Sequence record: OQ957557.1
From: Enterobacter phage ST22
DNA: 45,779 bases
Strand: one strand, 5' to 3'
In this document: one piece after another, positions 1-22,220 of the stretch
How the letters are laid out: every line of letters begins with the position of its first letter
Numbering within the stretch: the stretch's first letter is position 1
Translations under genes and position numbers: made by a program
The notes under the pieces: model-generated
What the model saw: only the letters and a program-made list of their open reading frames with translations
Databases searched by the model: none
Told to the model about the DNA's origin: nothing

Positions 1-632
1 GCCTTTGCGCGGTCCTCTGCCCACATCTCATAGACGTAGCCAAATCCCTCTGGCGTGGTGTATGCGCTCACGCTGTTAAGCGGGCGTTTGGTCATGCGTC
101 GCCAGGTGCGCGGGCGCTGACGGTTACGCGCAATGATTTTACGCCATACGTCACGAGCCTGGAGCGTTGGCAGCGTGTCCAGCTCATCCACATGCGCCCT
201 CATGGACTGATAGCCCACGATGCGATCAGGATTCATCATGGCGCGCAGAACGAAATCCCCAATATTGCCGGAGCTGGTGTAAATGATGTTCTCTGATTTG
301 TTGTAGCGGTAGCGGTAGCCAAACGCGCTGAGGGTTTCCATCATGCGCGGGGCCATAATGAGCCGCACCAGGTCATACGTTGGCTCATACAGCGCGATGA
401 GAGAGCCTGATCCTCCCTCTCTGGCATCCATCAGGGCGCTCTTTGCCATAGTCTCTGATTTGCCCGTACCAAAGCCGCCCACGAAAGCGGGAAACTTTAC
501 GCCCAGATTCATAAAACGCGCCTGAGGCTCAGTGAGCACCATGCGGTAATCGGTCAGGCGGCGCGGCCTGGTCTGCCCGTTTGGCAGTTTGAGGATATTG
601 CCGCAGCGGTCCGGCGTTAAAATCTCACTCAT
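1..632 (-). CDS. terL: Terminase large subunit, N-terminal ATPase part. The ORF runs off the window start and continues in frame at 45026..45779 (circular join).
   Basis: Reverse-complement translation gives MSEILTPDRCGNILKLPNGQT...VGGFGTGKSETMAK (Walker A). ATG at 630-632 overlaps the terS stop. I checked codon continuity across 2,1/45779 by hand (junction codon GCT, no stop). Confidence 0.8.
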   Translation of the reverse strand, partial: MSEILTPDRCGNILKLPNGQTRPRRLTDYRMVLTEPQARFMNLGVKFPAFVGGFGTGKSETMAKSALMDAREGGSGSLIALYEPTYDLVRLIMAPRMMETLSAFGYRYRYNKSENIIYTSSGNIGDFVLRAMMNPDRIVGYQSMRAHVDELDTLPTLQARDVWRKIIARNRQRPRTWRRMTKRPLNSVSAYTTPEGFGYVYEMWAEDRAK

Positions 633-1383
633 CAGGTAACATCTCCAGCAGGCCCAGAAGGTGTCCTCTGACTTTGGCTACCTCCTTGAGCTGATCCTTA
701 TCGTTCTCATCGTATAGCTCAAACTGCTCCAGCCCTTCATCCTCATCTTTGCCCAGGAGTTTATTTTTCTCCCTGGCATCAAGCCAAAGCTGGTAAAACG
801 CATCATCACGATCTTTCACCACCGTGACCACAAAGGCGGTAGCCTCTGGCAGCTCGCCGGTTGATTCAACCTCAGCCTCACTCACACCTTTGGCACGAGC
901 GGCAGCCTCTTTTCCGTTAGTCCATCCGTGATTTTGCGCCAGCACCAGGGCGGCAAAGTTTGGCGGGAGGATATTTTTAGCCGTGGCGCGCTGGACCAGA
1001 TCGGCCTGCATCCCAATCGCTACGCGTAAGGAGTCGGAAAACTCTGGATGCTTATCTGCCCACTCATAGAGCGTGTCACGATGAACTAATAGTTTCGCTG
1101 CAAAACCTTCCAGCGTTGGGAAATCATAATCAGCAAAGTCCTGGCGTGCGCCTTTGTCCGTGTAGTTCGAAAACACGAGGTGCTCAACCTGGAAATATTT
1201 GATGATATCGCCGCAGTAGCTTTTTTGATATTTGGACGGGCGGCCCACGCGGCGGGCTTGAGCAGCATTACGGCGTTTTGCCGCAGTAACGGCGGCCTTT
1301 TGCTTTTTCTCTTGCTCAAAGCGGGCTGATAGGTTTTCTGGGATCTCAGCAGTCTCATCCTGCTGCTTTTTACGCGGTGCCAT
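625..1383 (-). CDS. terS: Terminase small subunit (252 aa), basic N-terminus and acidic C-terminus.
   Basis: It lies immediately upstream of terL and overlaps it by 8 nt. It has a K/R-rich DNA-binding-like N-terminus. The call rests on position and composition. Confidence 0.6.
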   Translation of the reverse strand: MAPRKKQQDETAEIPENLSARFEQEKKQKAAVTAAKRRNAAQARRVGRPSKYQKSYCGDIIKYFQVEHLVFSNYTDKGARQDFADYDFPTLEGFAAKLLVHRDTLYEWADKHPEFSDSLRVAIGMQADLVQRATAKNILPPNFAALVLAQNHGWTNGKEAAARAKGVSEAEVESTGELPEATAFVVTVVKDRDDAFYQLWLDAREKNKLLGKDEDEGLEQFELYDENDKDQLKEVAKVRGHLLGLLEMLPDE

Positions 1384-1420
1384 GTGGTTATCCTCTGGTA
1401 AACGTCAGGGCCGCAAGCCC

Positions 1421-1451
1421 AAAACGACAAAGCCCGCAAGGCTCTGCGGGC
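1421..1451 (-). terminator. Terminator-like hairpin in the terS leader: AGCCCGCA-N6-TGCGGGCT followed by TTGTCGTTTTG on the minus strand.
   Basis: 8-bp GC-rich stem at 1431-1438/1445-1452 followed by a T-run in the transcribed (minus) orientation. It is part of the conserved ~70-nt leader duplicated upstream of the scaffold gene. Confidence 0.45.
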
Positions 1452-1483
1452 TTAGGATATCCAAAATGATTGACGCGTGCAAT

Positions 1484-1829: not shown

Positions 1830-2795
1830 TTAGAAAGCAACGTGGGCACCAACCGCACCGCCAACCGTGTGCCCGTCAGTGGTCAGATCCAGAGTTACCG
1901 CAGTGCTTTCCGTCGCCTGGTACTGAGCACCAACCGCCAGAGCCGCAGAGTTATCCCATGAGCCAATCGCTACAGCTGCGCCGTTGCCGTGGTCATAGTG
2001 CAGACCTGCCGCAGCTATGGCTGCGCTGGTGGCGCGGGCCAGCTCTTTGTGCGTCACGGTGTCGCGTGGGGTGAAGTCACGCCCAGCCGCGCCAGTGTCG
2101 CCCTTGTCGCCTTTCTCGCCTTTCTCGCCTTTGGCACCGGCCTGGCCATCCTTGCCATCCTTGCCAGCTGCGCCAGCTTTGCCATCGCGGCCCGCCTTGC
2201 CATCCTTGCCGTTAACGCCGTCACGGCCTGCCTTGCCAGCTGCGCCATCCTTCCCATTCAGTCCGTTATGCCCATCAACGCCATTAACGCCATCACGGCC
2301 CGCTGCACCGTCATGCCCGTTAGCGCCAGCAGTGCCGTTTTTGCCATCCACACCATCATGCCCGTTAACGCCATCTTTCCCATCCTTCCCGTTTAAACCA
2401 TCTTTGCCATCATGCACCTGGATGGCGTGCTGGATAGCTGCATCCAGTTTGGCCTGCTGGCGCTGAGCGTCTGTAACGTTGCTATCCAGATGGCTGCTGC
2501 GGTCAATCCCAGCAGGGGCATCTGCGTGCGGTGTAACCGGCTGCTGGTGGTTGCCATCCAGGTGCGGGGTGGTCACGCCGCCAGCGTGCAGATCCTGCCG
2601 CCAGTTAGTGCCTGCCGCCTTGTCAGCGCTGTCAAACTCAGCCTGCTGCTGAGCATCAAAGCCTGAGTAAGTGCGCGCAGCGTCCTGATAGCTCATGTTT
2701 TGGATAGTGTTATACAGGTCAACGCCTGCGCCAGCATGAGCCACGCCAGTGATGGACGCCAGAGCAATGGTTACAGCAACGATAGTTTTACGCAT
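1830..2795 (-). CDS. Secreted collagen-like trimeric-autotransporter (YadA-type) adhesin-like protein. It has a Sec signal peptide, a long G-X-Y collagen repeat tract and a C-terminal 4-strand beta-barrel anchor ending in F.
   Basis: N-terminus MRKTIVAVTIALASITGVAHA. About 35 GXY triplets (GKDGKDGVNGHDG...). C-terminus ...AVAIGSWDNSAALAVGAQYQATESTAVTLDLTTDGHTVGGAVGAHVAF, with alternating hydrophobics and a terminal aromatic residue. Confidence 0.6.
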   Translation of the reverse strand: MRKTIVAVTIALASITGVAHAGAGVDLYNTIQNMSYQDAARTYSGFDAQQQAEFDSADKAAGTNWRQDLHAGGVTTPHLDGNHQQPVTPHADAPAGIDRSSHLDSNVTDAQRQQAKLDAAIQHAIQVHDGKDGLNGKDGKDGVNGHDGVDGKNGTAGANGHDGAAGRDGVNGVDGHNGLNGKDGAAGKAGRDGVNGKDGKAGRDGKAGAAGKDGKDGQAGAKGEKGEKGDKGDTGAAGRDFTPRDTVTHKELARATSAAIAAAGLHYDHGNGAAVAIGSWDNSAALAVGAQYQATESTAVTLDLTTDGHTVGGAVGAHVAF

Positions 2796-4869: not shown

Positions 4870-4970
4870 GGGCAACCGTCAACCGTTTCCAAACCTAATA
4901 ATCTAATAACAGTTTGACACTATCCACCAGCTCAGCGCAAAATGGCAACCTGTTTTGACAACCAACCGGT
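4870..4970. promoter_or_regulatory. Iteron-like CAACC repeats (GCAACC GTCAACC .. CCAAACC .. GGCAACC .. GACAACCAACC) with TTGACA -35-like elements. Candidate origin of replication and early rightward promoter region, immediately upstream of the primase.
   Basis: Five to six CAACC copies within ~100 bp, next to an AT-rich low-complexity tract and the prim-pol gene. Confidence 0.35.
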
Positions 4971-4979
4971 AACGCACCG

Positions 4980-7673
4980 ATGAAAGAGAATCGTTTAACG
5001 CCTCACTGGAGGCTTTACAAGGATGCAGGCTTTTCCATCATCCCAATCATCCCCATGGAGCAAAACGGGAGGGGGGATTGGGTTTGTACGTGTAACAGCG
5101 CCCATTGTCAGGCGGCTGGTAAGCACCCAACGATCAGACGTTGGGAAAACGTTGTGCATACGCATAGCGATGCGGCAACGCACCGCCTGATTAATTCCAA
5201 ATGCCAGAGCTTTGGGGTTTCCGCTGATGGGTGGCTGATTGTGGACGTGGACCCGCGCAATGGTGGCGGGGTAGGTCTGGAAAAGCTGGAGGAGGCACTG
5301 GATTGCTATCTTGAGGATATCGCCGGATTGACCGTTGAAACGGGAGGCGGTGGCCTGCATTACTATTTCAAAGCCCCTGAGGGCGTGAAGATGGTGACGG
5401 GCAAAAAGGAGTTTCCTGGGGTGGACTTTGTGCATGGCCTGCATTACGTGGTTGGGGCCGGTAGCGCGCATAAATCAGGTGGCACTTACACCATCAAAAA
5501 GGGTAGCCCGGACAAGATTGATTATCCCCCTAAAGAGCTGGTGGACCTGATTGAGAGGCAGCCCTGGGTGGCTGGCACTGGTGGGGATGGTGAAGCTGAG
5601 CCGGAGCTGGTGGAGATGGCCCTTGATGCTATTCCAAATGATGATGTGGACTATGATGAATGGCTGCGCATTGGGATGGCTCTGCGTCACTGGGATGATG
5701 ATGCCGGTTATGCCCTGTTTGTTAAGTGGTCGGAGCAGTCCAGCAAGTTTGATCCGGCTGACCTTGATCGCCGCTGGGCATCATTTGGGGATGTGGGCGC
5801 GGTTAACGTGGGCACCATCTTTCAGCGGGCCATGCTGAATGGCTGGGAGCGTCCACGCGATGCAGTTTGTGGTGAGATTGATGAGCAGGGCAAGATCATC
5901 CCGTTCCGCGCTACTGAGGCCCAACTGGATGCCATGCGTAAGATGCTGAGCACTCCACGGGGTAGCAAGGTAATCGTGGTGCATGAGGATGAGGTGATTG
6001 AGTCAGACGCCGCACCCCAGCGCCAGGCTGCGCCTGCCGCCGAAAACCCACAACCCCAAAACCAAAAACCCATGGGCACCGCAGCAAGCTGCCGCACCGG
6101 TGGCAAACCCTTCTGGCAGAAAAGCGATGGCACCACCCCAACCGGCGAGATGCGCCACGCGGGTGTGCTGCCGGTGGCCCCTCCTGCCCCTACCATCAAG
6201 GCCGCGCCGAAAGCCTCAGCTGCGGCTATGCAGTACAAGATCAAGCTCCCTGGCTGGATTGGAACAATTTACGATCACATGGCCCGCACCGCGTGGAGCG
6301 TGCAGCCTGGTGCCATCGCCGCCGCAGCCATTCAGGCCGTTGCCGTCGCTGGGCGCGGGGTGAAGGGCTACAACCGCGCTAACACGAGCCTCATCACGAT
6401 GGTGATCGCCGCGTCAGCGTCCGGCAAAGAGCACCCTCAGCGCGTTTTCCACACCCTGATGCAGAGCGTTGGAATTGACGTTCACGCGGAGATGCGCAGT
6501 GACAAGGATTTAGTTTACGGGCTGGTGGATGGCGACGGTGCAGCGTGCTACCTGGTGGATGAGGCCCATACGCTCTTTGGGGCTGCCGGTGCCGGTGATG
6601 CCGTCAAGCGCGTGGACAAGTCCAGCCTCCAGCTGGGCGGGATGCTGCTGAAAGTGGGCACCGCCACCAAATTGCCACTGCCGCGTAACTGGATGGCTGA
6701 CATTGAGGCGCGTGAGGGCGCTGAGATTGAGAAGCTGCGCAAAAAACAGGCCCAGATTGAGGAGGGCAAAGGCGTATGGAAGCAGCGCCCCACTGAGCAG
6801 GCTAACCTGGAATATGCGCGCCTTGAGGCTCTGATCGGTTTCCGTGAGAAGCGCCTCAAAAACCTCAAAGCCAACGGGCTGGATAACGTCAAATTCAACA
6901 TGCTGTGTAGCTCCACACCTGCCATGTTCTCTGAATACATTGACGAAACGGCGATTAATAACGGGCTGGCGGGCCGTGCGCTGATCTTTGACTGCGGGCA
7001 CAAGGCAGATTATCCATGCTTTGAAGCGCCGCCACTGGATAGCCAGCGCCGCGCTGAGATTGATGATTATATTGCGCGCCTGCGGGAAGCCGGTGAGCTG
7101 GGGCTGGAGGTTGAGGCCAGCAGCGGGGCGGTGGCGTTATTCCGTCAGTTCCATGACAAGATGAGTCAGCCAGCTTATGCAGAAGATCCGCAAACGGGGC
7201 CGGTAAACCGCCGCAGCTCTGAGCGCGTTTCAAGCCTTGCCAGCATCCTGGCGATGGGAAACCAGACACATGAGGGCGTTTTCCTGATCACTGAGGAGAT
7301 CGCGCAAACCGCCATTGATCTGGTGGAGATGCACCTGGCAACGTGCCGCTTTATGCTTAGTCAGACCATGGCAGAGGATAGCCAGATTGACAGCAAGGCC
7401 GCCATCCAGCAGCGGGTGCTGCATATCATGCAGAAAACCACCAGCGATGAGCCTATGGCTTACAGCGTGCTGCGTCAGCGTTTCCTGGCTGCCAAAAAGT
7501 GGAAAACACTTATCAAACGGTTGACGGATGAGGGGCCAAAGTCCGATAATGACCGTCTGGGCCAGGAGATCATTGCCATGCTGCGGCTGGGCTTGATTGA
7601 TGGCGCGGTGAATAAAGCGTGCTGGATCACGCCGAAAGGCAGAGAGAGCGGCGGCTATGGTAAATCTTTATAA
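4980..7673 (+). CDS. DNA primase (bifunctional primase-polymerase N-terminus + PriCT-like region + Pro/Ala-rich linker + large C-terminal DUF3987-like domain).
   Basis: N-terminus ...LIVDVDPRNGGG...GGGGLHYYFK..VDFVHG (prim-pol). 897 aa, with a low-complexity linker at about aa 330-400. Confidence 0.75.
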   Translation: MKENRLTPHWRLYKDAGFSIIPIIPMEQNGRGDWVCTCNSAHCQAAGKHPTIRRWENVVHTHSDAATHRLINSKCQSFGVSADGWLIVDVDPRNGGGVGLEKLEEALDCYLEDIAGLTVETGGGGLHYYFKAPEGVKMVTGKKEFPGVDFVHGLHYVVGAGSAHKSGGTYTIKKGSPDKIDYPPKELVDLIERQPWVAGTGGDGEAEPELVEMALDAIPNDDVDYDEWLRIGMALRHWDDDAGYALFVKWSEQSSKFDPADLDRRWASFGDVGAVNVGTIFQRAMLNGWERPRDAVCGEIDEQGKIIPFRATEAQLDAMRKMLSTPRGSKVIVVHEDEVIESDAAPQRQAAPAAENPQPQNQKPMGTAASCRTGGKPFWQKSDGTTPTGEMRHAGVLPVAPPAPTIKAAPKASAAAMQYKIKLPGWIGTIYDHMARTAWSVQPGAIAAAAIQAVAVAGRGVKGYNRANTSLITMVIAASASGKEHPQRVFHTLMQSVGIDVHAEMRSDKDLVYGLVDGDGAACYLVDEAHTLFGAAGAGDAVKRVDKSSLQLGGMLLKVGTATKLPLPRNWMADIEAREGAEIEKLRKKQAQIEEGKGVWKQRPTEQANLEYARLEALIGFREKRLKNLKANGLDNVKFNMLCSSTPAMFSEYIDETAINNGLAGRALIFDCGHKADYPCFEAPPLDSQRRAEIDDYIARLREAGELGLEVEASSGAVALFRQFHDKMSQPAYAEDPQTGPVNRRSSERVSSLASILAMGNQTHEGVFLITEEIAQTAIDLVEMHLATCRFMLSQTMAEDSQIDSKAAIQQRVLHIMQKTTSDEPMAYSVLRQRFLAAKKWKTLIKRLTDEGPKSDNDRLGQEIIAMLRLGLIDGAVNKACWITPKGRESGGYGKSL

Positions 7674-8061
7674 CTGGGGCCGCGTGGCCCCGTCATGGGA
7701 ACCGCGTAAGCCAGCGGTTGCCCGTGACCCAAATGACCCAATGCCGGACGGGCTGACGGTCACGGCTGAAATCAGGTACGTCCGTTTCCAGAAGGATGGC
7801 GAGAAGATTGATCGCGTGGTTGTGTTCCGCATAACTGCCGGTGAATTTAACAACTGTGAAGCCAATTACCGCATCAAGTGGAACAGGCCGGACAAGCTCA
7901 GGCCGCTCACGGATGTGGTCATGCCGGATAGCAGGGAGCGGGGCCGCATGGTGGCCTCCCGTGATCCAAAGGTGTGGAGTGAGATGTTAGCGGGGCGCTG
8001 CGCCACAATCGTGATTGGCGTCTATATGGGCCACAATTACATTAAAGAAATCAAGAGGTAA
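7657..8061 (+). CDS. Hypothetical protein (134 aa).
   Basis: ORF overlapping the primase stop. Confidence 0.45.
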   Translation: MVNLYNWGRVAPSWEPRKPAVARDPNDPMPDGLTVTAEIRYVRFQKDGEKIDRVVVFRITAGEFNNCEANYRIKWNRPDKLRPLTDVVMPDSRERGRMVASRDPKVWSEMLAGRCATIVIGVYMGHNYIKEIKR

Positions 8062-8066
8062 GCATT

Positions 8067-8912
8067 ATGTTAGATGGAATGAGTAAACCAGGATTAACTG
8101 CGCCGGTTATCGTGATCGCCGGTCCCCCAGGGGCTGGTAAGTCAACGCTGGGCGCATTGTTCCCCATGCCGCTGTTTATTCAAGCTGAGGAGCTGAGTAG
8201 CGTTTTTGATGATTGGGCTGAGGAGGATAAGCCTCACACCTTGCCGATTCTGCCAGCGCATGATCTGGCGCTCAAAAAATCGCCGTATGACACGATCATG
8301 AAACAACTTGATCAGATTGGGCGGGCCAATACCGCAGAGCTGCGGCAGCAGGTGCGCACCCTCGTTATTGACTCCACCAGCGTGCTCAACGCTCTGCTGG
8401 AAGTGGAGATCGTGGAGAAGGACGGCTCTGACTCCATGGGTAACGCCTGCGGTGGTTTCCACAAGGCTTATGAGGTGGCTGCCGGTATGCACACCAAAAT
8501 CATTGAGCGGGCTAAGCGGGTATGCCGCAAGCACAACATGGCGCTCATTTTCCTGGGGCACACCATTGCCCGCAAGATGCGCAACCGCCCAGATGCTGAG
8601 GAGTACAGCGTATGGACTCTGGATATGGGTGAGAAAGCCGCGCAGGTTTACTACCGGCTGAGTGATGCCGTGCTATTCCTGACGGTGGAGGAGTTTGTGC
8701 GCGGTGGGGAAACCAGTAAGAAGGGGATCACCACCAAAAGCGGCAAAATCATCAGCACGGGCCAGCGCATCATTGTGACGTGCCCAGAAGGTAAGCAGGG
8801 ATTCAGCAATGCCAAAAACCGCATGAATCTGGACGCGCTTATCAAAGTGCCAGCTGACAGCAACCCATTGCTGGATCTGATCCCGTTTTACGTCGCCAAT
8901 CCTCTGGGGTGA
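8067..8912 (+). CDS. RecA-like/AAA_24 (Sak4-like) ATPase, putative recombination protein.
   Basis: Walker A VIVIAGPPGAGKST near the N-terminus. RBS AAGAGG upstream. Confidence 0.6.
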   Translation: MLDGMSKPGLTAPVIVIAGPPGAGKSTLGALFPMPLFIQAEELSSVFDDWAEEDKPHTLPILPAHDLALKKSPYDTIMKQLDQIGRANTAELRQQVRTLVIDSTSVLNALLEVEIVEKDGSDSMGNACGGFHKAYEVAAGMHTKIIERAKRVCRKHNMALIFLGHTIARKMRNRPDAEEYSVWTLDMGEKAAQVYYRLSDAVLFLTVEEFVRGGETSKKGITTKSGKIISTGQRIIVTCPEGKQGFSNAKNRMNLDALIKVPADSNPLLDLIPFYVANPLG

Positions 8913-8931
8913 AAATAATTTAAAATAATGG

Positions 8932-8968
8932 TTGACGGTTGAGGTGATTGGGGTAATAATCACCTCAA
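8932..8968 (+). promoter_or_regulatory. Sigma70-like promoter, GGTTGACG family: -35 TTGACG (8932-8937), 17-nt spacer, -10 AATAAT (8955-8960). It is overlapped by the 11-bp inverted repeat TTGAGGTGATT-N8-AATCACCTCAA (8939-8949/8958-8968).
   Basis: ATAATGGTTGACGG with an AT-rich upstream tract. The perfect inverted repeat covers the spacer/-10/TSS, which is an operator-like position. Confidence 0.55.
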
Positions 8969-9007
8969 CAAAACGACAACCGTTTAAACCAAAGAGGACT
9001 TATCAAG

Positions 9008-9976
9008 ATGGCAAACTCAAACGCAATCCGCACCGCTCTGAAAATCGTTTCCCGCATGATTGAACTGCGCAGCTCTGGCATCAAGCTGAAAGTTTATAAG
9101 GCTGAACTGCTCACCATGATGTGCGATCTGCAAAAGGATTTACCGGCAGAGGTTAATTGGTATCTCACCCAGGCTCACCGCTCACGCTCTGGGGAGACTT
9201 TTTTCCGTCGCCTGCGTGATGCAGAGGCGATCATTGTTTCCGCTCTGCGCCTCGCTGAGCAGATGGACGGCTACCACGCTGAGGCGCTGGAAATGGATGA
9301 AGATTTTGAATGCCGCGCCTACACCGTTGAGCACGCTCAGGAGCAGTTTAAAGAGCTTGATCCTGAGGTACGCGGCGAGGTTATCGCAGAGAAACATACT
9401 GAGGCGCTGGCTATTAACGCCGCTTTCGATAGCTCATTCCACCGCCGCGCTGCCAACTGGGGCGCGATGGATATGCTGAGCCGTGAGGTGGCGCTGGATA
9501 AAGCCCACCAGGAAGCGATGGAAATCAATAAGCGCTACCCGCTGAGCCAAAAGCAGAAAGATGCGATCCGCCAGGGTGGCATTGAAATTATGCACCGCGC
9601 CCACCCATTCCTGCTGGAGGAGGATCACGCCAAAGCGCTGCGCATGAATGCGGGTATTGATCGCGCCGTGGAGATCATCAAGCTGATGGCGCTGATGCCT
9701 GGGGCCGGTGATGCAGCAGGTGGCTGCCTTTACCGTGACGGCTTTGACGATATCAATGATCTCGTGGAGGTGGCGCTGCGCATCGTTGGGCCTTACGTCT
9801 ACATGAAGCCAGCAGGATGCGCGGCAGCTATGCGGTGTGATGGGGATCGCGTCTGGTGGTGGTCTGAACGCCGCAAAGTCTGGATTAAAGAGACTGATTG
9901 CACGCCGGAGACTTTCGCCAGCTTTCTGACCACCGGAAACGGATTTTATTGCAGCAACCCAGAAGTAAATCAGTAA
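9008..9976 (+). CDS. Hypothetical protein (322 aa).
   Basis: It is preceded by the leader AAAACGACAACCGTTTAAACCAAAGAGG. I recognise no domain. Confidence 0.6.
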   Translation: MANSNAIRTALKIVSRMIELRSSGIKLKVYKAELLTMMCDLQKDLPAEVNWYLTQAHRSRSGETFFRRLRDAEAIIVSALRLAEQMDGYHAEALEMDEDFECRAYTVEHAQEQFKELDPEVRGEVIAEKHTEALAINAAFDSSFHRRAANWGAMDMLSREVALDKAHQEAMEINKRYPLSQKQKDAIRQGGIEIMHRAHPFLLEEDHAKALRMNAGIDRAVEIIKLMALMPGAGDAAGGCLYRDGFDDINDLVEVALRIVGPYVYMKPAGCAAAMRCDGDRVWWWSERRKVWIKETDCTPETFASFLTTGNGFYCSNPEVNQ

Positions 9977-10045
9977 AAACAGATTGACCAATAACGCCAA
10001 CCGGTTTAAGGTTGGCACCTCAAAACAGTAACGTGGAGTTTTAAA

Positions 10046-10795
10046 ATGGGCTTTTGGACAAAATCAAATGGTGAGCAGGCTGGTGCTAACGCAGACGTTA
10101 ACCAGGACGGCGTTGAAACTGGCAAGGTAGTGCGCATCCCTGACCGCACCAAAGTGCTGGGCGTGCTGAAATCCATTGAGCTGCTGCCGGTCCGTGAGGG
10201 CAAAGAGGCAGATGCTCAGGACGGCGCAACGCTGGGCTATAAAGTCGAGTGGGAAGTGATTGAGAAGGGCGAATATCAGGGCAGCATCCAGCGCCAAGGC
10301 ATCAAGATTTTCGCCACCAAAGATCGCACCCGTGATGAAGCGCTGGAGCTGCTTTTCTTCATGGATAATCTGTTTGCCGATGGTCGTTTCCAGGCAACTG
10401 GTGAGGAGCCGGATCTGGCAGAAATGGAGGCCGCTTTCCAGAATAAACCGGCTATCCTGCTGATCCGTGGTATGGAATCAGAAAACGCGGAAACCGGCGA
10501 GAAAAGCTATTTCAACTGGGTTGGCGGTGTATTCCGTTACAAAGAGCCAGCTACCGCTCACAAAACCCCAGCTGACGCAGTGAACGCAGCCAAAGAGCAG
10601 ATCGCCAAAGGCAACGCAGCAGCAGCCGCCAACAAGCCTAAGCAGGAAACCGCCGCAGAGCGTAAGGCCCGCCTGATGCGTGAGCTGGCTGCTGAGGAGG
10701 AAGCTGAGCAGGCTGAGCAGGTAGAGGCAGCTAAGGCAGAGGATGGCGTTGCACATGGTGGCGCTGATATTGATCCTGAGGATCTGCCGTACTAA
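10046..10795 (+). CDS. Putative ssDNA-binding protein (acidic C-terminal tail ...DIDPEDLPY).
   Basis: The SSB-like acidic C-terminus, the position next to the Sak4-like ATPase and the leader with the AACGCCAACCGGTTTAA motif variant support the call. Confidence 0.4.
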   Translation: MGFWTKSNGEQAGANADVNQDGVETGKVVRIPDRTKVLGVLKSIELLPVREGKEADAQDGATLGYKVEWEVIEKGEYQGSIQRQGIKIFATKDRTRDEALELLFFMDNLFADGRFQATGEEPDLAEMEAAFQNKPAILLIRGMESENAETGEKSYFNWVGGVFRYKEPATAHKTPADAVNAAKEQIAKGNAAAAANKPKQETAAERKARLMRELAAEEEAEQAEQVEAAKAEDGVAHGGADIDPEDLPY

Positions 10796-10817
10796 TCCAG
10801 CCGGATTAATCCCATGA

Positions 10818-10840
10818 GGGCACTGCGGTGCCCTTTTTTA
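10818..10840 (+). terminator. Rho-independent terminator: GGGCAC-TGCG-GTGCCC followed by TTTTTT.
   Basis: Read directly. It lies downstream of the 10046..10795 gene. Confidence 0.7.
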
Positions 10841-10850
10841 CCACTAAAAT

Positions 10851-11198
10851 ATGAGTAAGCCCGTGATGAATGCTGCCACCGATCAGGCACCAGTGCCACG
10901 TAAGCCACGCAAGCGCCGCCGCAGCGCTGCACAAAAGGTTAAGGCCGCCAATAAGGCCAAAGCCAGATACATCAAAAACAACCCCACCAAACGCCGCGCC
11001 CACCGGCTGATTGAGAACGGCCTGAAAAACGGCTCAATCACCAAAGGCACGGAGTGCTGCGAGTGTCACACCCCAACCACTGAGAAGCGCGTGATCGCCC
11101 ATCATGATGATTATGCGCAGCCGCTGGCAATCCGCTGGATGTGTGATAAGTGTCACCGCGCCTGGCATAACATCCACGGCGAGGCGCTCAACCCATGA
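10851..11198 (+). CDS. Small basic protein with a Cys/His zinc-finger-like motif (CCECH..C..CH).
   Basis: N-terminus RKPRKRRRSAAQKVKAANKAKAR, then CCECH...MCDKCHRAWH. Confidence 0.5.
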   Translation: MSKPVMNAATDQAPVPRKPRKRRRSAAQKVKAANKAKARYIKNNPTKRRAHRLIENGLKNGSITKGTECCECHTPTTEKRVIAHHDDYAQPLAIRWMCDKCHRAWHNIHGEALNP

Positions 11199-11746
11199 TC
11201 TACACCAGCAAAACAACGCCGATAATCAGCGCGTGCAGCCGCCTGGTGTGGGCTGCCAGCCACCAGCCGCAGGTGATGGAGATCGTGGAGCGCCTGCACC
11301 TCATTGACGACGCGGTAAAGCGGTCCGTAATGGCTGACGCGCCGCCGCTGCGTTTTAAGGATCTGGCTATCCGGTCCGGCTACATTGACGGCATCATCAA
11401 CGCCGCAGGCAATAAGCTGCTTTACGTGGCGGTTAGCTATGACGATGAGCCAACGGATGCGCACCTGCTGCACGTCCAGCGCCAGCTGGCTGACCTTAAC
11501 GCCCGCAAGGAAACCCACCTGCACATGCAGGAGGCTTTTATGCTCATCGTGAATAAAAGCGCTGGGCGCTTCCGTGAGCGCGTTATGCCTTACCGTGATG
11601 AGTTTGCCATTGACTTTCAATTTATCGCTGATGAGCCGCTCCCAGGCCCTGAGGTGGTCAATTCTGAGTGTAACCTTTGCCCGCTGCGTTATGACTGCGA
11701 AACGCTGGCGGCGAGTGATGCTAAAGGGGTGCATCGTGATTTTTAA
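11195..11746 (+). CDS. Hypothetical protein (183 aa).
   Basis: ORF overlapping its neighbours by 4 and 10 nt. Confidence 0.5.
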   Translation: MIYTSKTTPIISACSRLVWAASHQPQVMEIVERLHLIDDAVKRSVMADAPPLRFKDLAIRSGYIDGIINAAGNKLLYVAVSYDDEPTDAHLLHVQRQLADLNARKETHLHMQEAFMLIVNKSAGRFRERVMPYRDEFAIDFQFIADEPLPGPEVVNSECNLCPLRYDCETLAASDAKGVHRDF

Positions 11747-13637
11747 ACTGAGGGGCTACCAGCAGGATGCAGTTGACGCTGTTATCGCCCAGATCCGGCG
11801 CTCAGTCGCTTCCGCCGTCATTGTCCTGCCTACTGGGGCGGGCAAGTCTCTGGTGGTGGCTGAGCTAGCTAAACGCATTCACCATGACAGCAAGGGCAAG
11901 CGCGTGCTCTGCCTTGCTCCAACCGCTGAGCTGGTGACGCAGAACCGCAAAAAATTCCTGGCTTTTGGCTATGATGCCAGCCTGTTTTCAGCATCAGCCG
12001 GTGGCAAGTCAACCCGCCATCCGGTGATTTTCGGCAGCCCAATGACCGTGGCTAACAGCGTTGAGCGTTTTTATGATGATGTGGCTGCCATCATCGTTGA
12101 TGAATGCCAGGGCATCACCAGCACCCTGCTGAAAATCATTGATTCCATCCGTGAACATAATCCACGCGTGCGCCTGATTGGCATGACTGCCACGCCATAC
12201 CGCACCGGCACCGGCTACATCTACAAAGATCATTACATCAACGGGCCAACGGATGAAACCAACGCCCGTGATCCATATTTTGACCGCGTGGTGTATGAGC
12301 TGCCTGCGCAGTATCTGATTGACAACAGTTTCCTTAACCCGCCTCTGGTAGGCGAGCGGATCACGCTGGGTTACTCCACCAGCGGGCTGGAAATGCGCGG
12401 TGATAAATTCACCAATGACAGCGTGAAAGAGGCGTTTGAGGGTGAGGCTCGCCTGACCTATCAGATTGTCCAGGATATCGTTGAGCGGGTGGAAACTGGC
12501 GGTTATCGCAGCGTGATGATTTTTGCCGCCACCCGTGACCATGCAGAGGAAGTGTGCAGCTATTTGCCAGCCGGTGAGTGGGTTGCGGTGTACGGTGACA
12601 CGCCGAAAGCGCAGCGTGATATTAACCTGAATGCTTTCATTGCCAACAAATATAAATACATCGTCAACCAAAACATATTGACAACCGGTTTCGATGCGCC
12701 TATGGTTGACGTTATCGGAGTGATGCGCGCCACTGAGTCACCTGGCCTTTACCAGCAAATCATTGGACGCGGCACCCGCCTCTGCGATGTTCCATACCCA
12801 GACGGCAGGATGAAAGATCACTTTCTGGTGCTGGAATATGCTGAGAATATCAGCCGCCACTTTAAGGAAACCGGCGATCTATTTGTGCCGGAGATTAAAG
12901 CCCGTAAGCCGCCAACCGGCACGCCCATGGAGGTGCCTTGCCCAGATTGTGGGTTTGTGAATACGTTCACGGCGCGGCCTAACGAGGAGAATCTCAAGAT
13001 TGATGAGCATGGCTATTTCCTGGACTTGTCCGGCAGTCAGCTGATGATTGAGATCAAGGAGGGGCGCAAGGGTGAGGAGATTTACAAAGAGGTGCCAATG
13101 CCTGCCCACTTCGGCAGACGCTGCACCAACATGCTGGAGCAGGGGCCACTGCGTGAGATTAAGCGCTGCGGCTATATGTGGAGCTTTAAGAGCTGCCCTG
13201 AGTGTGGCACTCAAAACGATATAGCCGCACGCAAATGCACGGCCTGCAAATGCGAGATTGTCAACCCTAATGACAAACTCAAAGAGGAGGCCGAAATGCT
13301 GGAGAAAGATCCGCACGCGGTTAAAACGGCAAACGTCACTGGGATGCTGTGGCAACGGTCATGGTCACGCAAAGGCGATCAGATGCTCATCCTGACCTGG
13401 CTGACTGATCACAAGCTCAAGATGTTCCGCAAGATTGAGCAGCCATTTATCCCAGACCACGAAAAGGCGTTTCCGCGCCAGAAGTGGGAGCGCATGAGTA
13501 AAGATCTGTTTGGGCACGTCAAGGATATTGAGGACGCGCTCAGTTTGCAGAAAGCGGCCCGCCTACCGGCGCGCATTGTTTTCCAGCGGCCTAAGGGCCA
13601 GAAGTACCCAATCATTAAACGTCTGGAGTTTGAATAA
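11737..13637 (+). CDS. SF2 (DEAD/DEAH-like) helicase with C-terminal zinc ribbons. Start inferred at the GTG after an AAAGGGG RBS.
   Basis: RGYQQDAV...LPTGAGKS (motif I), DECQ (motif II), and C-terminal CPDCG...CPECG...CTACKC. Confidence 0.8.
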
Positions 13638-14089
13638 TGATTTTTCCTGATGGTGTGCCGGTCTACGGCGATAAAAATTTTCGTGACAAGAAATGCCCTA
13701 AAGAGGATGCGGAGCTGATCACGTTTTTCAATCAGCTACGCCGCCGCAGTCCGGCGCTGGCAGCCGTGGCGCTGCATATCAAAAACGAGGGCCAGCGCAC
13801 CGGTGAGCAGGCCATCAGAGAGCGCGCAAAGGGCGCGCTTAAAACTGGTGCCACCGATATTGTGATCACTGCCGCAGGCTCATTCATCTGTGAGCTTAAG
13901 CGCAAGGATCACACCCTCAGCAGGCTGGAAGGGGCGCAAAAGGAGCAGCTGCTGGCTGGGATGGAGGTTGGCGCGTTTGCCTGCATCGCGCTGGGTTGGG
14001 AGGCCGCATTTGAGGCTCTGGAGGCGTTTATTGACACGCTACCCAAAGCCGTGCGCGCCCGTATTCAATACACTGTGGAGCTGATTTAA
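13637..14089 (+). CDS. VRR-NUC domain nuclease (PD-(D/E)XK).
   Basis: ...TGATDIVITAAGSFICELKRKD... (D..E.K), downstream of the helicase. Confidence 0.6.
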   Translation: MIFPDGVPVYGDKNFRDKKCPKEDAELITFFNQLRRRSPALAAVALHIKNEGQRTGEQAIRERAKGALKTGATDIVITAAGSFICELKRKDHTLSRLEGAQKEQLLAGMEVGAFACIALGWEAAFEALEAFIDTLPKAVRARIQYTVELI

Positions 14090-14658
14090 TGACCACGTTA
14101 CGAATTGATAAGCCTCTGCTGGAGGCCATGCACCTGGTGAAAGGCCAGCCCAATAAAGAATGGCGCGGCTGGATGCTGGGGATCTGCTTTGCCGCAGACG
14201 GGCAGGTTTTTGCCACTAATGGGCATGTGCTGGCTGCCTCGCCTGGCTATCCGGTTGAGGATAAGCCTGAGGGGTTTGCCGGTGTCTGCCTGGAAATCCC
14301 CAAAACGCCCGCCAACCTGAAAAAGTATGAGCAGGTGGTTATCTCTCTGGAGGAGGGGCTGGCCCGCTACCTTGATGAGCAGGGTAATGAGCTGGGAGTG
14401 CAGGCGGTTAAGCGCGTGGACATTCCCAGCCTACCGAAAGTAGGGGCTGTTATTGAGCGCCCACCAGCAGAGCCTCAGAATGAATTTGTTTTCAATCCGG
14501 GCTACCTCGCCATGATTGAAAAAATCGCCCTCCTCTTTGAGAAAAAGCTGGAGAAAAAGATCTATGTGCGTATACGCGGCACGGATAACTGCGCGTTTAT
14601 TGCTTACCCAACCTGCGGCGTTGAAATCCGTTTCATGGTCGCCCCGATTAAGGTTTAA
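14089..14658 (+). CDS. Hypothetical protein (189 aa).
   Basis: ORF with an ATGA start/stop overlap with the VRR-NUC gene. Confidence 0.5.
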   Translation: MTTLRIDKPLLEAMHLVKGQPNKEWRGWMLGICFAADGQVFATNGHVLAASPGYPVEDKPEGFAGVCLEIPKTPANLKKYEQVVISLEEGLARYLDEQGNELGVQAVKRVDIPSLPKVGAVIERPPAEPQNEFVFNPGYLAMIEKIALLFEKKLEKKIYVRIRGTDNCAFIAYPTCGVEIRFMVAPIKV

Positions 14659-14663
14659 AAAAA

Positions 14664-15205
14664 TGCCGATCCCACTCAAACATAAGCATGAAGATCCCAC
14701 CCAGGAATACCTGCACGGGATGTTTAACTATGACCCAGAAACGGGCATTTTCACGTTCAAAGATGCAAAGAGCCGCAACGCATTCAGCCAGGGCAAGAAA
14801 GCCCGCGCTCATCGCATTGGTAAGCCGTGGTGTGGCACTGAGGTGCTCAGCGGGCGCATCTTCATAAACATTGGGAAGCGTCAGCGGCAGGCTAACCGGC
14901 TGGCGTGGATCTACGTCCATGGAAGCATCCCAGAGGGGATGGAGGTTGGGTATATCACTCCGCTGGACCCGCTAAACCCAGAGGCCAGCGGAAACTACGC
15001 CAACCGGCTGAGCAACCTGCGGCTCTGCACCCGTGAGGAGTTTAACACTGAGACTCAGCGCCGGATTGAGAAGCGCGCCAGAGAGGCCGGTAAGAAGGTG
15101 GGCCGCACGCCTAAGCCAATGGCTCAGCTGGAGCGGGAGCGCTCGCAGGCGGGCTATCAGGGCGGCTCTGCGTTGTTCAAAATGATGATGGGCCAGAGAG
15201 TTTAG
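14664..15205 (+). CDS. HNH_3-like (homing-endonuclease-like) protein, degenerate.
   Basis: ...RLAWIYVHGSIPEGMEVGYITPLDPLNPEASGNYANRLSNLRLCTREE resembles the HNH_3 pattern, but the catalytic His-Asp-Gly-Asn is not conserved. Confidence 0.4.
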
Positions 15206-15208
15206 GCC

Positions 15209-15243
15209 AAAAAAAACCCGCGTCCAAAGTGGCGCGGGGTTTA
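15209..15243. terminator. Hairpin CCCGCG-N10-CGCGGG flanked by an A8 run and GTTT. Weak bidirectional terminator.
   Basis: Read directly. The T-tract is short on the plus strand. Confidence 0.4.
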
Positions 15244-15306
15244 ACCAATCCAAACTCAAAAAGTAAGCGGATTAACTTTAGGCAATATTTGATTAAGGAT
15301 CAAACC

Positions 15307-15486
15307 ATGTTTGTTGAGAAATATATTGTTTGGCTGGCTGCGTGCCAATTCCTGCGCCACATCCTGGACGTATGCCGCAGTAAGCCATATGTGGAGCCGG
15401 TAAACAAATGGACCCGATTAGGGCACGCCATTGCCATGGTTATCTGGCTGCTGGCAACAATCCACCTCTGGGGCAAACTGCCATGA
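15307..15486 (+). CDS. Small hydrophobic protein (~59 aa).
   Basis: AAGGA RBS, ATG at 15307, two hydrophobic segments. ATGA overlap with the next gene. Confidence 0.35.
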   Translation: MFVEKYIVWLAACQFLRHILDVCRSKPYVEPVNKWTRLGHAIAMVIWLLATIHLWGKLP

Positions 15487-16052
15487 GTGGAAACTTTAAC
15501 CCAGGGAAAGAGAGTAAAACTGATGCAGACGAAAAGAATTTTTGGGCCACCCAATGGCATTGTTTCCATGATGGTGAGAGGCTTTACGGTCGCCGGTTTG
15601 AGCATGACGTGGCAGCCATGCGGCACACCGCCAAAGTGCCAGGGGCTTATTACGGGCCAGATCACGAGCTTGAGCAGTACCGTGACGCGCTCACGTTAGG
15701 CTGGCCTGATCATTGGTGGTGTAACCCACCGTTTGACCGTAAGCAGGATTTCATCATCAAGGCCCGTGAGCAGCAGGCTATGGGCCGCCCTGGCATGATG
15801 TTGATCCCGTATGAGCCGTGCAGCGGTTGGTGGCAGGATTTGCTGGCTGAGGACGTGATTATCTATGAGCCACGGGGCCGCTATAACTTCTATGCGCCGG
15901 ATGGGGAAACGCCAAAGAGCGGCGTTAACTTCCCGATTGCCTTTGTGGCTTTTCCGACGATGAAGATCGGCCCATCGGTGCGCGTGCAATTCAGGAAATC
16001 ACCGGCCCCGCGCCTGCCACGAAAAAAGAAAGAAAAAAAGGTTGGCGCTTAA
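15483..16052 (+). CDS. dam: Phage-type DNA N6-adenine methyltransferase (Dam family, NPPF motif).
   Basis: ...HWWCNPPFDRKQDFIIKA... (motif IV NPPF). Small ~190-aa phage Dam architecture. Confidence 0.7.
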   Translation: MSGNFNPGKESKTDADEKNFWATQWHCFHDGERLYGRRFEHDVAAMRHTAKVPGAYYGPDHELEQYRDALTLGWPDHWWCNPPFDRKQDFIIKAREQQAMGRPGMMLIPYEPCSGWWQDLLAEDVIIYEPRGRYNFYAPDGETPKSGVNFPIAFVAFPTMKIGPSVRVQFRKSPAPRLPRKKKEKKVGA

Positions 16053-16123
16053 ACGTCATTCGTTTTATAGTTCGTTTCACGGGGCCAGCAGGTGGCCCCA
16101 CTAACCAAACAAAAGGTAAGCAA

Positions 16124-16642
16124 ATGAGCATTTTGTCCATGGTTGTAACAGCTATCCGTAACGCGAAAAGCCGCAAAATGAAACGCACCATTGCAAAGGT
16201 AGGCGCTAACCTGGTGGCGGCAGCCGCAGCTCCTGACACAGGCGCTCTTGTCGAAACTAACGACGCGCCGCACCCGCTGCACATGCTGATCGAAAAAGAG
16301 GGTATTGGCCCACGCGGTAAAACCGGCAAAATCACCCACCGCCTGCGCAACGGGATCGACTTTTACAGCTGCTCAGACCTGGCGGCTAAACAGGTTGATC
16401 GCCTGATTGATGATCTGCGCGATGTGTACGGCAAAACCAGCACGCTGAGCCTGTTTGAGCGCGGCACCGGCAATGCACCTTACGAAATGGTGATGGTGGT
16501 CAAGAAAAATGATCGCACCGTGGCAGAGGTGTGCCTGGTCGCCGGTTACTCTGAGCAGAGCTACGTGCGCCGCAGCCAGAAGATTTTTAACGCTCTGGGA
16601 AGCACCAGCCGCGCATGGGCTATCAACGGCCTGCAAAAATGA
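16124..16642 (+). CDS. Hypothetical protein (172 aa).
   Basis: ORF preceded by a GGGGCCA-N5-TGGCCCC hairpin at 16081-16099. Confidence 0.5.
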   Translation: MSILSMVVTAIRNAKSRKMKRTIAKVGANLVAAAAAPDTGALVETNDAPHPLHMLIEKEGIGPRGKTGKITHRLRNGIDFYSCSDLAAKQVDRLIDDLRDVYGKTSTLSLFERGTGNAPYEMVMVVKKNDRTVAEVCLVAGYSEQSYVRRSQKIFNALGSTSRAWAINGLQK

Positions 16643-16779
16643 GAATGACCGTTATCACCCTGCTTTGTGTAGCTCTGGCAAGCTGCACGGCTCAGCAGGT
16701 GCAGACGGTTGCCACGGTGTGCGATATCGCCGCCAAAGTGCTGGGGTGCGTTGCTGGCACAATGCCACCAGCCAAATAA
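16639..16779 (+). CDS. Small lipoprotein (46 aa), entericidin/Cor-like size class.
   Basis: MRMTVITLLCVALASC has the lipobox LASC. ATGA overlap with the upstream gene. It is below the 60-aa ORF-track cutoff. Confidence 0.45.
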   Translation: MRMTVITLLCVALASCTAQQVQTVATVCDIAAKVLGCVAGTMPPAK

Positions 16780-16783
16780 TTAA

Positions 16784-16808
16784 CCGGCCCACGGATGGGC
16801 CAATTTTT
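16784..16808 (+). terminator. GGCCCA-CGGA-TGGGCC hairpin followed by AATTTTTGA.
   Basis: Read directly, after the small lipoprotein gene. Confidence 0.45.
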
Positions 16809-16821
16809 GAGGATTGACCAG

Positions 16822-17343
16822 ATGAGTTTTGTAAAGGTTGAGCTGCGCACCAGTGTGGCCAACAAAGCCCTGAAATTGATGAGCCGCCGCTATAGCACCA
16901 ATAACCAGCGGGAAATGCAGATCGGCCTGCTGGGTGAATATGCGGTTGCCCAGTGGCTTGAGAGTGAGGGGAAAACTGTTAATCATTGCTCAGTGGCAGA
17001 AATGCGTTTTGCTGAGCGTGAGGGCAGCGCTGACCTGAGCTATCTGAGCCGCTACGGTGAGCAGGTCAACGTGCAGGTAAAGGCCACTGAGTTTGATACG
17101 TGCTGGATCACGGCTGGCTGCCTTAAAGGCTATCTTTGCCGCAACGTTCATGAGATCTATTTTGTGGACGTGTTTATCAACGGGCCGGTAACAACCGCCT
17201 TTATTTATCACCAGACAACGCCGCAGCGCATCAAAGCGCAGTGGGTGGAAGTGGACAAAGGCAAACGCCTGATCCACCCGTCACTGCACCGTGCGCGCCG
17301 CCGTTATACTGGCATTAACCCAACTGAGGAAGTGAGCAAATGA
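16822..17343 (+). CDS. Putative PD-(D/E)XK-family nuclease-like protein (~174 aa).
   Basis: GLLGEYAVAQWL (helix with conserved E) ... GSADL ... VNVQVK (D..Q.K). A weak motif match only. Confidence 0.35.
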   Translation: MSFVKVELRTSVANKALKLMSRRYSTNNQREMQIGLLGEYAVAQWLESEGKTVNHCSVAEMRFAEREGSADLSYLSRYGEQVNVQVKATEFDTCWITAGCLKGYLCRNVHEIYFVDVFINGPVTTAFIYHQTTPQRIKAQWVEVDKGKRLIHPSLHRARRRYTGINPTEEVSK

Positions 17344-18068
17344 GTGGAATCGTAGAAAAGGCCCAGGAAAGCAGGACTGTAAACACTAAAACGCGCATCA
17401 CTGCGTTTATCCGTGACGCGATGATTTCCAAAGCGATGGACACGAGCGGAATTAATGACCGTAAAAAGCAGCTGATTGATGATCGCGCTGCACTGGCTGA
17501 GGATGTGCGCCAGTTTGCTCTGCGTCAGTCCGGTCTGACTGATGAAGGGATCAGGGGCATCCAGGCGAAACTTGAAAAGGAATACCCAAGCGGCGGGCAC
17601 GCTCGTGATTTCCTTAAGGTTGATATTTCGTTTCAAACGCATCAGCGCTTTAACGTCAACCTCAACGGGATGGATGTTTATTTGTGGCTGGATGGTCGCC
17701 CGTTTGAGTATCACGCATATGATGAGGGCAATAATACCCACCTCACTAAAGGCATCCAGGACCGCCAAAAAGAAGATACTACAGCGATCTTTGTTCCGCG
17801 CCAGCGCGCCAACATTGCCAGCGTTGAGCTGGGTGATCGCTTTATCAAACTGGACGCTGAAAAAGAGCTGATCGCCAGCAAAGTTGAGCAAATCACAAAC
17901 ACTCTGCGCGCCACGATCAAAAAGTTTGGCACCGTTGAGACAATGCTGGAGGCGTGGCCTGAGGCTGAGGAGCTGCTGCCTAAAGAGCTGCGCCCATCCA
18001 CTGCGCTGGCTATCAGCCCTGATGATCTGAATGCCATTTGTGGCATCCCAACCGGCAAAGCGGAATAA
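17340..18068 (+). CDS. Hypothetical protein (242 aa).
   Basis: ORF. I recognise no domain. Confidence 0.5.
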   Translation: MSGIVEKAQESRTVNTKTRITAFIRDAMISKAMDTSGINDRKKQLIDDRAALAEDVRQFALRQSGLTDEGIRGIQAKLEKEYPSGGHARDFLKVDISFQTHQRFNVNLNGMDVYLWLDGRPFEYHAYDEGNNTHLTKGIQDRQKEDTTAIFVPRQRANIASVELGDRFIKLDAEKELIASKVEQITNTLRATIKKFGTVETMLEAWPEAEELLPKELRPSTALAISPDDLNAICGIPTGKAE

Positions 18069-18108
18069 CCAATTCAGGGCAAGGATGCCCACCTAACGGA
18101 GAAATAGC

Positions 18109-19818: not shown

Positions 19819-19826
19819 TTTCACTA

Positions 19827-19856
19827 AAGCGGTTGACAATCTCAGCCGCTTTTTTG
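19827..19856 (+). terminator. AGCGG-N13-CCGCT hairpin followed by TTTTTT.
   Basis: It overlaps the promoter of the next operon. Confidence 0.5.
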
Positions 19857-22210: not shown

Positions 22211-22220
22211 CTGATATGAT

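Follow-up and report, generated by a model that had tools for sequence, protein, structure and literature searches.

The genome of Enterobacter phage ST22 (sequence record OQ957557.1), a stretch of 45,779 nucleotides (nt) that we call the window, carries two copies of a structured leader, one ahead of terS, the gene of the small terminase subunit, and one ahead of the scaffold gene. Both copies are on the minus strand, and the duplication proposed by the initial annotation was confirmed. Each leader is a 5' untranslated region (UTR) of ~65 nt. The first ~45 nt of the RNA fold as two directly abutting hairpins, and these are followed by an unpaired A/C-rich stretch with the Shine-Dalgarno sequence ACCAGAGGA and then by the ATG. 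With about even confidence, we propose that the leader acts in cis as the 5' UTR of the head-gene messenger RNAs (mRNAs), where it would protect the 5' end, keep the ribosome site open and offer a docking site for a single reader of the loops. The parts of the two leaders are as follows.

1427-1447, minus strand: terS leader hairpin 1, GCAGAGCC-UUGCG-GGCUUUGU (DNA arms GCAGAGCC-TTGCG-GGCTTTGT), starting at the predicted +1 (1447), 7 nt past the -10 hexamer; supported by covariation.
1403-1426, minus strand: terS leader hairpin 2, CGUU-UU-GGGC-UUGCG-GCCC-U-GACG, a two-part stem abutting hairpin 1; both parts covary.
1381-1399, minus strand: terS unpaired ribosome-binding region, ACCAGAGGAUAACCAC, with the ATG.
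38610-38629, minus strand: scaffold leader hairpin 1, with the core GCCC-UUGCG-GGGC at 38613-38625 and the predicted +1 at 38629; supported by covariation.
38585-38609, minus strand: scaffold leader hairpin 2, CAUUUAGCGC-UUGCG-GCGUUAGGUG (DNA hairpin CATTTAGCGC-TTGCG-GCGTTAGGTG); supported by covariation.
38563-38581, minus strand: scaffold unpaired ribosome-binding region, ACCAGAGGAAAACCCC, with the ATG.

When the two leaders were aligned from the -10 hexamer to the ATG, 56 of the 81 columns were identical (69%), and the alignment score was 27, compared with -12.3 ± 4.7 in 2000 shuffles (z = 8.3). The translation initiation regions are nearly identical, as had been noted before: ACCAGAGGAWAACC occurs exactly only at 1386-1399 and 38568-38581, both on the minus strand, and 0.29 chance matches are expected when two mismatches are allowed. 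The two CTTGCGG boxes reported in each leader were also found. They are 21-24 base pairs (bp) apart, start to start, in all leaders, and all four boxes of the window are hairpins with the loop TTGCG and differing stems. Taken by itself, the heptamer shows no over-representation in the window, with 13 occurrences for 12.1 expected. Four of the seven TTGCG-loop hairpins of the window lie within the two leaders, with ~2 per shuffle expected window-wide, and the terminator hairpins of the window have other loops. Hairpin 2 ends 7-14 nt upstream of the Shine-Dalgarno sequence.

The leader is conserved in related phages, a point on which the initial annotation had made its proposal depend. Single-protein IMG/VR scans with the scaffold and terS proteins gave almost no matches, and nucleotide searches among isolated phages gave no close relative. 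Relatives were reached through metagenomic homologues of the scaffold protein, by an alignment-based scan and exact-protein look-ups. Both copies are present in the metagenomic contigs L017, L270, L020, L021, L022, L348, L349, L351 and L352, and the scaffold copy alone in seven shorter contigs (L018, L019, L023, L024, L288, L339 and L353). Scaffold-protein identity to the window is 73% in L017 and 52-59% in L020, L021, L022, L348, L349, L351 and L352, and both leaders of L270 are nearly identical to those of the window. The clade of the window is known from metagenomes only; among phages with a name, Pantoea phage MED16 comes closest in its capsid protein (50%).

A covariance model, R1, was built on an alignment (A3) of 18 distinct leaders. 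It found exactly two strong matches per genome, with 62-83 bits. The window sites scored 67.7 and 66.9 bits, the next match in the window had an E-value of 0.84, and no third copy was found there. A more diverged terS copy was detected in L024 (47 bits). The terS-type and scaffold-type leaders are separately conserved across the clade and only 45% identical outside the boxes, and a recent duplication was ruled out as an artefact behind their likeness. No whole-window match was found in Rfam 15 at gathering thresholds, permissive Rfam scans, run on the two window leaders and on the terS leaders of L020 and L048, yielded chance-level matches only, and literature searches yielded no description of the element. 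As a structured phage 5' leader the element belongs to a familiar general class, within which it is a motif not yet catalogued. It stands out because its loops are invariant, its distribution is strictly limited to two operons and its architecture is deeply conserved.

Searches by pattern were less productive. The pattern CTTGCGG..CTTGCGG..CAGAGGA retrieved only an unrelated coding family from IMG/VR, and a stricter pattern, run on genome and metagenome collections, gave mostly chance matches in GC-rich genomes, with L270, L288 and L339 as the only true relatives. The pattern scan also turned up a repeat, TTTGACGCGAAGGGGGACCCCGCAAAGGTTCCCCCTTCACACAACCCCTTCCTTGCGGGGAGGAAGGTTTGCTTGCGGC, which is unrelated to the leader and is shared by L230, L232, L238, L240 and over 20 further contigs from human-gut metagenomes. 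Two weaker sites were recorded with model R1. At 20073-20145 of L020 (21 bits), a single hairpin, TATGC-TTGCG-GCATA, is followed by CCAGAGGA and an ATG; it precedes a tail gene, lies within the preceding coding sequence, and may be a partial copy or a chance match. At 4534-4606 of L250, a high-GC phage-like contig, the hairpins ACTCCC-TTGCG-GGAGT and GCGCCC-TTGCG-GGCGC are followed by GGAGG and an ATG (16.5 bits). No PHROG match was obtained for the open reading frame directly downstream, and those of the two after it are to families of unknown function only; these twin hairpins may be a remote analogue.

The fold of the leader is supported by covariation, which bears out the earlier suggestion of a structured leader RNA. 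The consensus fold of the 18 leaders consists of two hairpins, the second with a two-part stem. Over the 12 pairs tested, 97.2% of the cells were standard pairs, compared with 73.7% in shuffles (0 of 500 as high), and the covariation score was 0.619, compared with 0.204 in shuffles (again 0 of 500) and 0.03-0.15 when the pairing partners were slid by 1-3 columns. Compensatory changes were observed in seven pairs; one pair occurs as UA, CG, AU and GC, and another as five pair types. G-U pairs are frequent. On the opposite strand they would be A-C mismatches, and the fold therefore belongs to the mRNA. As the similarity between the copies spans both the promoter hexamers and the transcribed part, and the fold is specific to the RNA strand, we conclude that the element acts as RNA.

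All 10 loop columns are invariant in the same 18 leaders. In the other unpaired segments the major-allele frequency is 0.61-0.82 and few columns are invariant. RNAalifold placed a U16-G20 pair inside the C-UUGCG-G loop, which leaves a UGC triloop. Within one genome, a single loop type is found in all hairpins despite their differing stems, suggesting selection by a common reader rather than gene conversion; the latter was ruled out as the source of the identical loops because the stems are not homogenised. We also noted that CCUUGCGG is the complement of the GCAA-tetraloop hairpin of helix 27 in 16S ribosomal RNA, which we take to be a coincidence of complementing a GNRA hairpin.

Each leader is preceded by a predicted sigma70-type promoter.

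1477-1482, minus strand: terS -35 hexamer, TTGCAC; TTGCAC or TTGCTT in relatives, with an exact 17-nt spacer.
1454-1459, minus strand: terS -10 hexamer, TATCCT; TATTCT or TATCCT in relatives, at equal distance from hairpin 1.
38659-38664, minus strand: scaffold -35 hexamer, TTGTGG; TTGTGG in L017, TTGCAT or TTGCAC in L020-type phages and TTGACT in MED16, all with 17-nt spacers.
38636-38641, minus strand: scaffold -10 hexamer, TATGAT; TATTAT in relatives.

The terS promoter is the one described in the initial annotation (TTGCAC-17-TATCCT). The scaffold promoter had been given as TTGCCG-19-TATGAT, but TTGCCG lies only 11 nt from TATGAT, and the promoter reads TTGTGG-17-TATGAT. Across the clade, the hexamers TTGCAC, TTGCAT, TTGCTT or TTGTGG are followed by 17 nt of drifting sequence and then by TATTAT, TATTCT, TATCCT or TATGAT. 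Judged by sequence, conserved hexamers around a drifting spacer of fixed length are the signature of a working sigma70 promoter. The AGCCCG said to follow the -10 directly is present at both promoters, one base later; it is not conserved in relatives, and L017 has CCACCCTG. Upstream of the -35, the terS and scaffold copies have no common sequence, and the similarity starts at the hexamers. An activator-dependent late promoter, which had been raised as an alternative, was not supported, since both promoters have a recognisable -35 and -10 and the copies share no upstream sequence. A sigma54 reading of the TTGC was ruled out by eye, since the GG expected 10 nt upstream is missing.

In the 13 leaders measured, pairing in hairpin 1 sets in 7-11 nt past the -10, and at exactly 7 nt in most leaders of the terS type. 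When RNA starting at the predicted +1 was folded to minimum energy, nearly all terS leaders formed two abutting hairpins that left 0-2 bases unpaired at the 5' end, and the ribosome site after them was unpaired. Counted from the predicted +1, the first hairpin starts within the ~0-4 nt of the mRNA 5' end expected of a 5'-terminal hairpin.

The layout of promoter, two abutting hairpins, Shine-Dalgarno sequence and ATG was also found outside the clade, in L350 (scaffold-protein identity 46%), in the Dhillonvirus-like L048, L050 and L053, and in Pantoea phage MED16. In these sister clades, (A/U)GG triloops replace UUGCG in every hairpin present. The hairpins stand at both genes in L350, L048, L050 and L053, and at terS only in MED16, where the scaffold gene has a good promoter (TTGACT-17-TATTCT) and a short leader without hairpins. 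A generic scan of about 90 loci for a pair of adjacent (A/T)G(G/C)-triloop hairpins with a Shine-Dalgarno sequence and an ATG behind them gave 52 matches compared with 2 in shuffles, and all 52 were at terS or scaffold leaders. The matches reach scaffold homologues of only 31-34% identity, in which the second hairpin contains the Shine-Dalgarno sequence. In the Dhillonvirus-like phages, L350 and the distant relatives alike, the second scaffold hairpin overlaps the Shine-Dalgarno sequence, and this overlap ties the element to translation.

A different arrangement was seen in L025-L047, which carry enterobacterial prophage-like scaffold homologues. Upstream of the scaffold gene they have a terminator, TTTTTTAT, one hairpin and then ACCAGAGG. 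The base of that hairpin (CCGCAG...CTGCACC) is conserved and its loop varies, the reverse of the pattern in the clade of the window.

Several terminator-like hairpins lie in or next to the two head-gene units.

1420-1453, minus strand: alternative 10-bp hairpin of the terS leader, AAGCCCGCAG/UUGCGGGCUU with a U tract; stem 1453-1430, then UGUCGUUUUG, with the tail to about 1420.
36677-36701, minus strand: strong intrinsic-terminator-like hairpin after the capsid gene, found by scan; the same position is occupied in L020 and MED16.
33851-33829, minus strand: terminator after the major tail gene, found by scan.
30484-30467, minus strand: terminator after the tape-measure gene, found by scan.
37833-37872, minus strand: terminator-like hairpin between the scaffold and capsid genes, GGUGGGG...CCCCACC CCAUUUGUUUAUUUU, with a 7-bp G/C-rich stem, a 9-nt loop and a U-rich tail.
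40840-40861, minus strand: terminator-like hairpin ending the terS-terL-portal-MuF-decoration unit, found by scan.

The initial annotation had listed several terminators within the head operon. Those after the capsid, major tail and tape-measure genes were recovered by the scan, and the hairpin at ~37833-37872, which the scan missed because of its loop size, was seen by eye only. The post-capsid hairpin is likely to be the 3' end of the scaffold-capsid mRNA segment. No strong internal terminator was found in the terS unit by the terminator scan. The terminator-like hairpin and U tract reported in the terS copy are real, a G+C-rich stem being followed directly by the U tract as in intrinsic terminators, but they are confined to the subclade of the window, L017 and L270. 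The sequence is identical in L017 and L270 and absent from L020-type terS leaders, and the alternative hairpin is therefore not a defining part of the element. Its 5' arm precedes the predicted +1, so that only transcripts arriving from the preceding operon should be able to form it. The hairpin would thus be a terminator-like insulator of terS against that operon, peculiar to this subclade.

We favour a role in the mRNA after transcription initiation because hairpin 1 begins where the transcript is predicted to start, an open and conserved ribosome site follows at a tight spacing, the second hairpin of the sister clades overlaps the Shine-Dalgarno sequence, and a strong hairpin follows the capsid gene. 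Each copy would be the start of a head-gene transcription unit, composed of a sigma70-type promoter and a structured 5' UTR. The twin hairpins would protect the 5' end and keep the ribosome site open on both head messages, and the leader and the post-capsid hairpin together would delimit a stable scaffold-capsid message. Since the loops are frozen, we propose in addition a sequence-specific interaction that couples the two head units. The loops may be a common docking site for a single sequence-specific reader, probably phage-encoded, which would couple the terS and scaffold units after initiation.

Close parallels are the E. coli ompA 5' UTR and the T7 gene 10 leader behind the phi10 promoter, which are 5'-terminal stem-loop stabilisers of mRNA and need no particular loop sequence. 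The window leaders resemble both in having a hairpin at or near the 5' end of the transcript, as predicted here, then an unstructured ribosome-binding region and a highly expressed gene, and in T7 the downstream gene is also a head gene. The window leaders differ in that they consist of two abutting hairpins with an invariant loop, serve two operons and are conserved across phage genera.

A number of observations weigh against this proposal. An invariant loop is not required by a pure stabiliser, and PHROG and Pfam scans of about 45 window proteins found no N, Q or RNA-binding regulator. Much of the covariation splits the terS type from the scaffold type, so that there are fewer independent changes than the cell counts suggest. 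In fold energy the leaders do not surpass shuffled GC-rich sequence (z from -1.7 to +0.5), and minimum-energy folds of L020-type scaffold leaders fail to give hairpin 1, though covariation supports it. The +1 itself is the predicted purine 7 nt past the -10, taken from promoter geometry. In MED16 the scaffold hairpins are dispensable. The hairpins of the most distant relatives come after a terminator, with no obvious promoter, and the 5'-terminal position of the hairpins is not universal unless RNA processing creates it.

A bolder view, which we regard as possible but on the doubtful side, is that the twin hairpins are the RNA half of a late-gene switch in virulent siphophages without N and Q, recognised by a clade-specific loop reader. 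Both head operons would load this reader, either RNA polymerase itself or a small protein of the phage, at their 5' ends, and the outcome would be terminator-resistant transcription or licensed translation. The N/boxB pairs of lambdoid phages differ from phage to phage, and by analogy the reader and the loop motif might co-evolve. A screen of small proteins for zinc-finger or arginine-rich candidates yielded no convincing or core reader; the only strongly basic small proteins were an HNH endonuclease (10851-11198) and a protein in a non-core plus-strand module (39338-39733).

The leaders might instead be translational operators, where a phage protein (e.g., free scaffold protein or an early protein) binds the loops of both and represses or times the translation of the head units. 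This overlaps the mRNA-leader proposal, and the only differences between the two concern the sign of the regulation and its target. The frozen loops are consistent with it, the end of hairpin 2 is within reach of the 30S footprint, and the Shine-Dalgarno sequence is held inside the second scaffold hairpin in the Dhillonvirus-like phages, L350 and the distant relatives. A precedent is the P22 scaffold protein, whose post-transcriptional autoregulation places the same gene class under control at the mRNA level; we know of no defined RNA operator in that system, and the window element differs in also preceding terS. However, no binding protein was identified, and the hairpins in the clade of the window leave the Shine-Dalgarno sequence and the ATG unoccluded. 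We consider an operator unlikely.

Antitermination is the main rival to the mRNA-leader proposal. In a process like that of N and boxB, a phage antiterminator bound to the loop would ride RNA polymerase past the post-capsid, major tail and tape-measure terminators. In form, as in lambda nut sites, a small hairpin presents a conserved 5-nt loop on a variable stem at the start of terminator-containing operons, and the loop type is clade-specific yet uniform within a genome, as in lambdoid N/boxB pairs. Furthermore, three or four strong terminator-like hairpins lie in the path of the scaffold unit, and behind the capsid gene there is no space for a promoter. The resemblance to nut is nonetheless incomplete: the loop UUGCG is not GNRA-like and is reduced to a triloop by the U16-G20 pair of RNAalifold, the hairpins are in tandem, the operons are late rather than early, and no boxA-like sequence (CGCTCTTA-like) was found in either leader when they were read directly. 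The PHROG and Pfam scans gave no N-like or other antiterminator, although N proteins are too divergent for this to prove absence. The terS unit has the same leader and no strong internal terminator, and MED16 keeps the terminators after its capsid and tape-measure genes with no hairpins ahead of its scaffold gene. A nut-type site also needs neither the tight, conserved Shine-Dalgarno spacing nor the hairpin overlap seen in the sister clades. On this evidence an N/boxB-like mechanism is improbable. As for a lambda-type Q/qut system, no Q-family match came from the same scans, and the first 15 transcribed bases hold no conserved TAnnnT across leaders. RfaH/ops was ruled out, since the 12-nt GGCGGTAGnnTG does not occur in either leader with up to 2 mismatches.

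The initial annotation had been reminded of HK022 put, in which the nascent RNA acts without a protein. put acts in cis on the zinc-binding domain of the RNA polymerase beta' subunit and thereby suppresses downstream terminators; here the nascent twin-hairpin RNA would bind RNA polymerase and confer terminator resistance. Like put, the leaders are ~70 nt long with two stem-loops, are promoter-proximal and occur in two similar copies in a phage without recognisable N or Q, and PutL pairs from +3, near the 5' end of its transcript (PMC9378689). Terminators do lie downstream of the scaffold copy. However, the hairpins of put are about 30 nt each, with bulges and a triplex in stem I (PMC9378689). 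The put stems are long and bulged and serve early operons, whereas the window stems are much shorter (13-25 nt) and more regular, and about a third of the 70 nt is a late-gene ribosome site. No sequence or structure match was found: model R1, run on positions 24,000-32,000 of the HK022 record (the immunity region, where the early promoters are expected, put not being annotated in the record), gave only a 10.9-bit chance match in a repressor-like coding sequence. In one of the two window units, that of terS, there is no terminator that would need suppressing, and the scaffold gene of MED16 does without hairpins. The difference in loops between clades that infect closely related hosts would also speak against a target as conserved as the polymerase zinc-binding domain. 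None of the tests favoured a put-like mechanism, which is the less likely reading and one to which we assign a low probability.

Least probable is a double-stranded DNA element, in which the CTTGCGG direct repeats would bind a regulator, a roadblock or the small terminase subunit (a pac-type site): the boxes are about two helical turns apart and one copy adjoins terS, but the flanks show base-pair covariation, and its G-U pairs are sensible only in single-stranded sense RNA, the sister clades keep the hairpins with just a 3-nt conserved loop motif, too little for a DNA site, and a copy at the scaffold gene is not expected of a packaging site.

The window appears to be a circularly permuted siphophage genome, and the large terminase gene seems to be split across its start and end. 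The structural genes are on the minus strand, and the plus strand carries an early/middle operon with lysis genes at about 4980-23301. The genes next to the two leaders are listed below.

625-1383, minus strand: terS coding sequence, with a PHROG terminase small subunit match.
37879-38565, minus strand: scaffold gene coding sequence.
36730-37821, minus strand: major capsid gene.
1830-2795, minus strand: tail-fibre gene of the collagen-like (Gly-X-Y) type, containing a repeat with a period of 9 nt; it lies shortly before the terS unit.

After terS come the large terminase, portal, MuF-like and decoration genes, which span the window ends and run to the terminator at 40861-40840 (minus strand). 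The scaffold and major capsid genes stand at the head of the remaining head and tail genes, also on the minus strand. L020-type phages have no opposite-strand module between the MuF-like and scaffold genes, and their scaffold leader occupies a ~100-nt gap inside the head operon. The second leader copy is therefore not a repair of the insertion in the window, since the L020-type scaffold leader is present without an inserted module.

The inserted module of the window lies between the head genes at 38751-40838 on the plus strand. It has a near-consensus promoter, TTGACA-17-TAGATT (38677-38712, plus strand), inside the palindrome TTGACACGTCAA. The same site holds five small reverse genes in L017 and an HNH endonuclease in MED16 and is empty in L020-type phages, suggesting an insertion hot spot. 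In L020 the terS promoter is preceded, at about 4960-5300, by ~350 nt of AT-rich non-coding DNA that contains GTAAT/ACGTAA-type repeats as well as a run of alternating purines and pyrimidines, GCGCATGCGCATGCGCACGCACAC; L021 and L022 have such a stretch too. It may be a packaging site or an origin. In the window the stretch is missing, and tail-fibre-like genes occupy the equivalent place.

The element described here bears on how virulent enterobacterial siphophages without their own RNA polymerase, sigma factor, N or Q time and balance the expression of their head genes. It marks exactly the two head-gene units, and variants of it are present in cultured E. coli phages of the Dhillonvirus group and in MED16, so that its role is directly testable. 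If the frozen loops are read by a factor, they would represent a new post-initiation control point for phage morphogenesis. If there is no reader, the leader would still be a portable module of promoter, stabiliser and ribosome site, useful for expression design. Either way, it is a candidate new RNA family.

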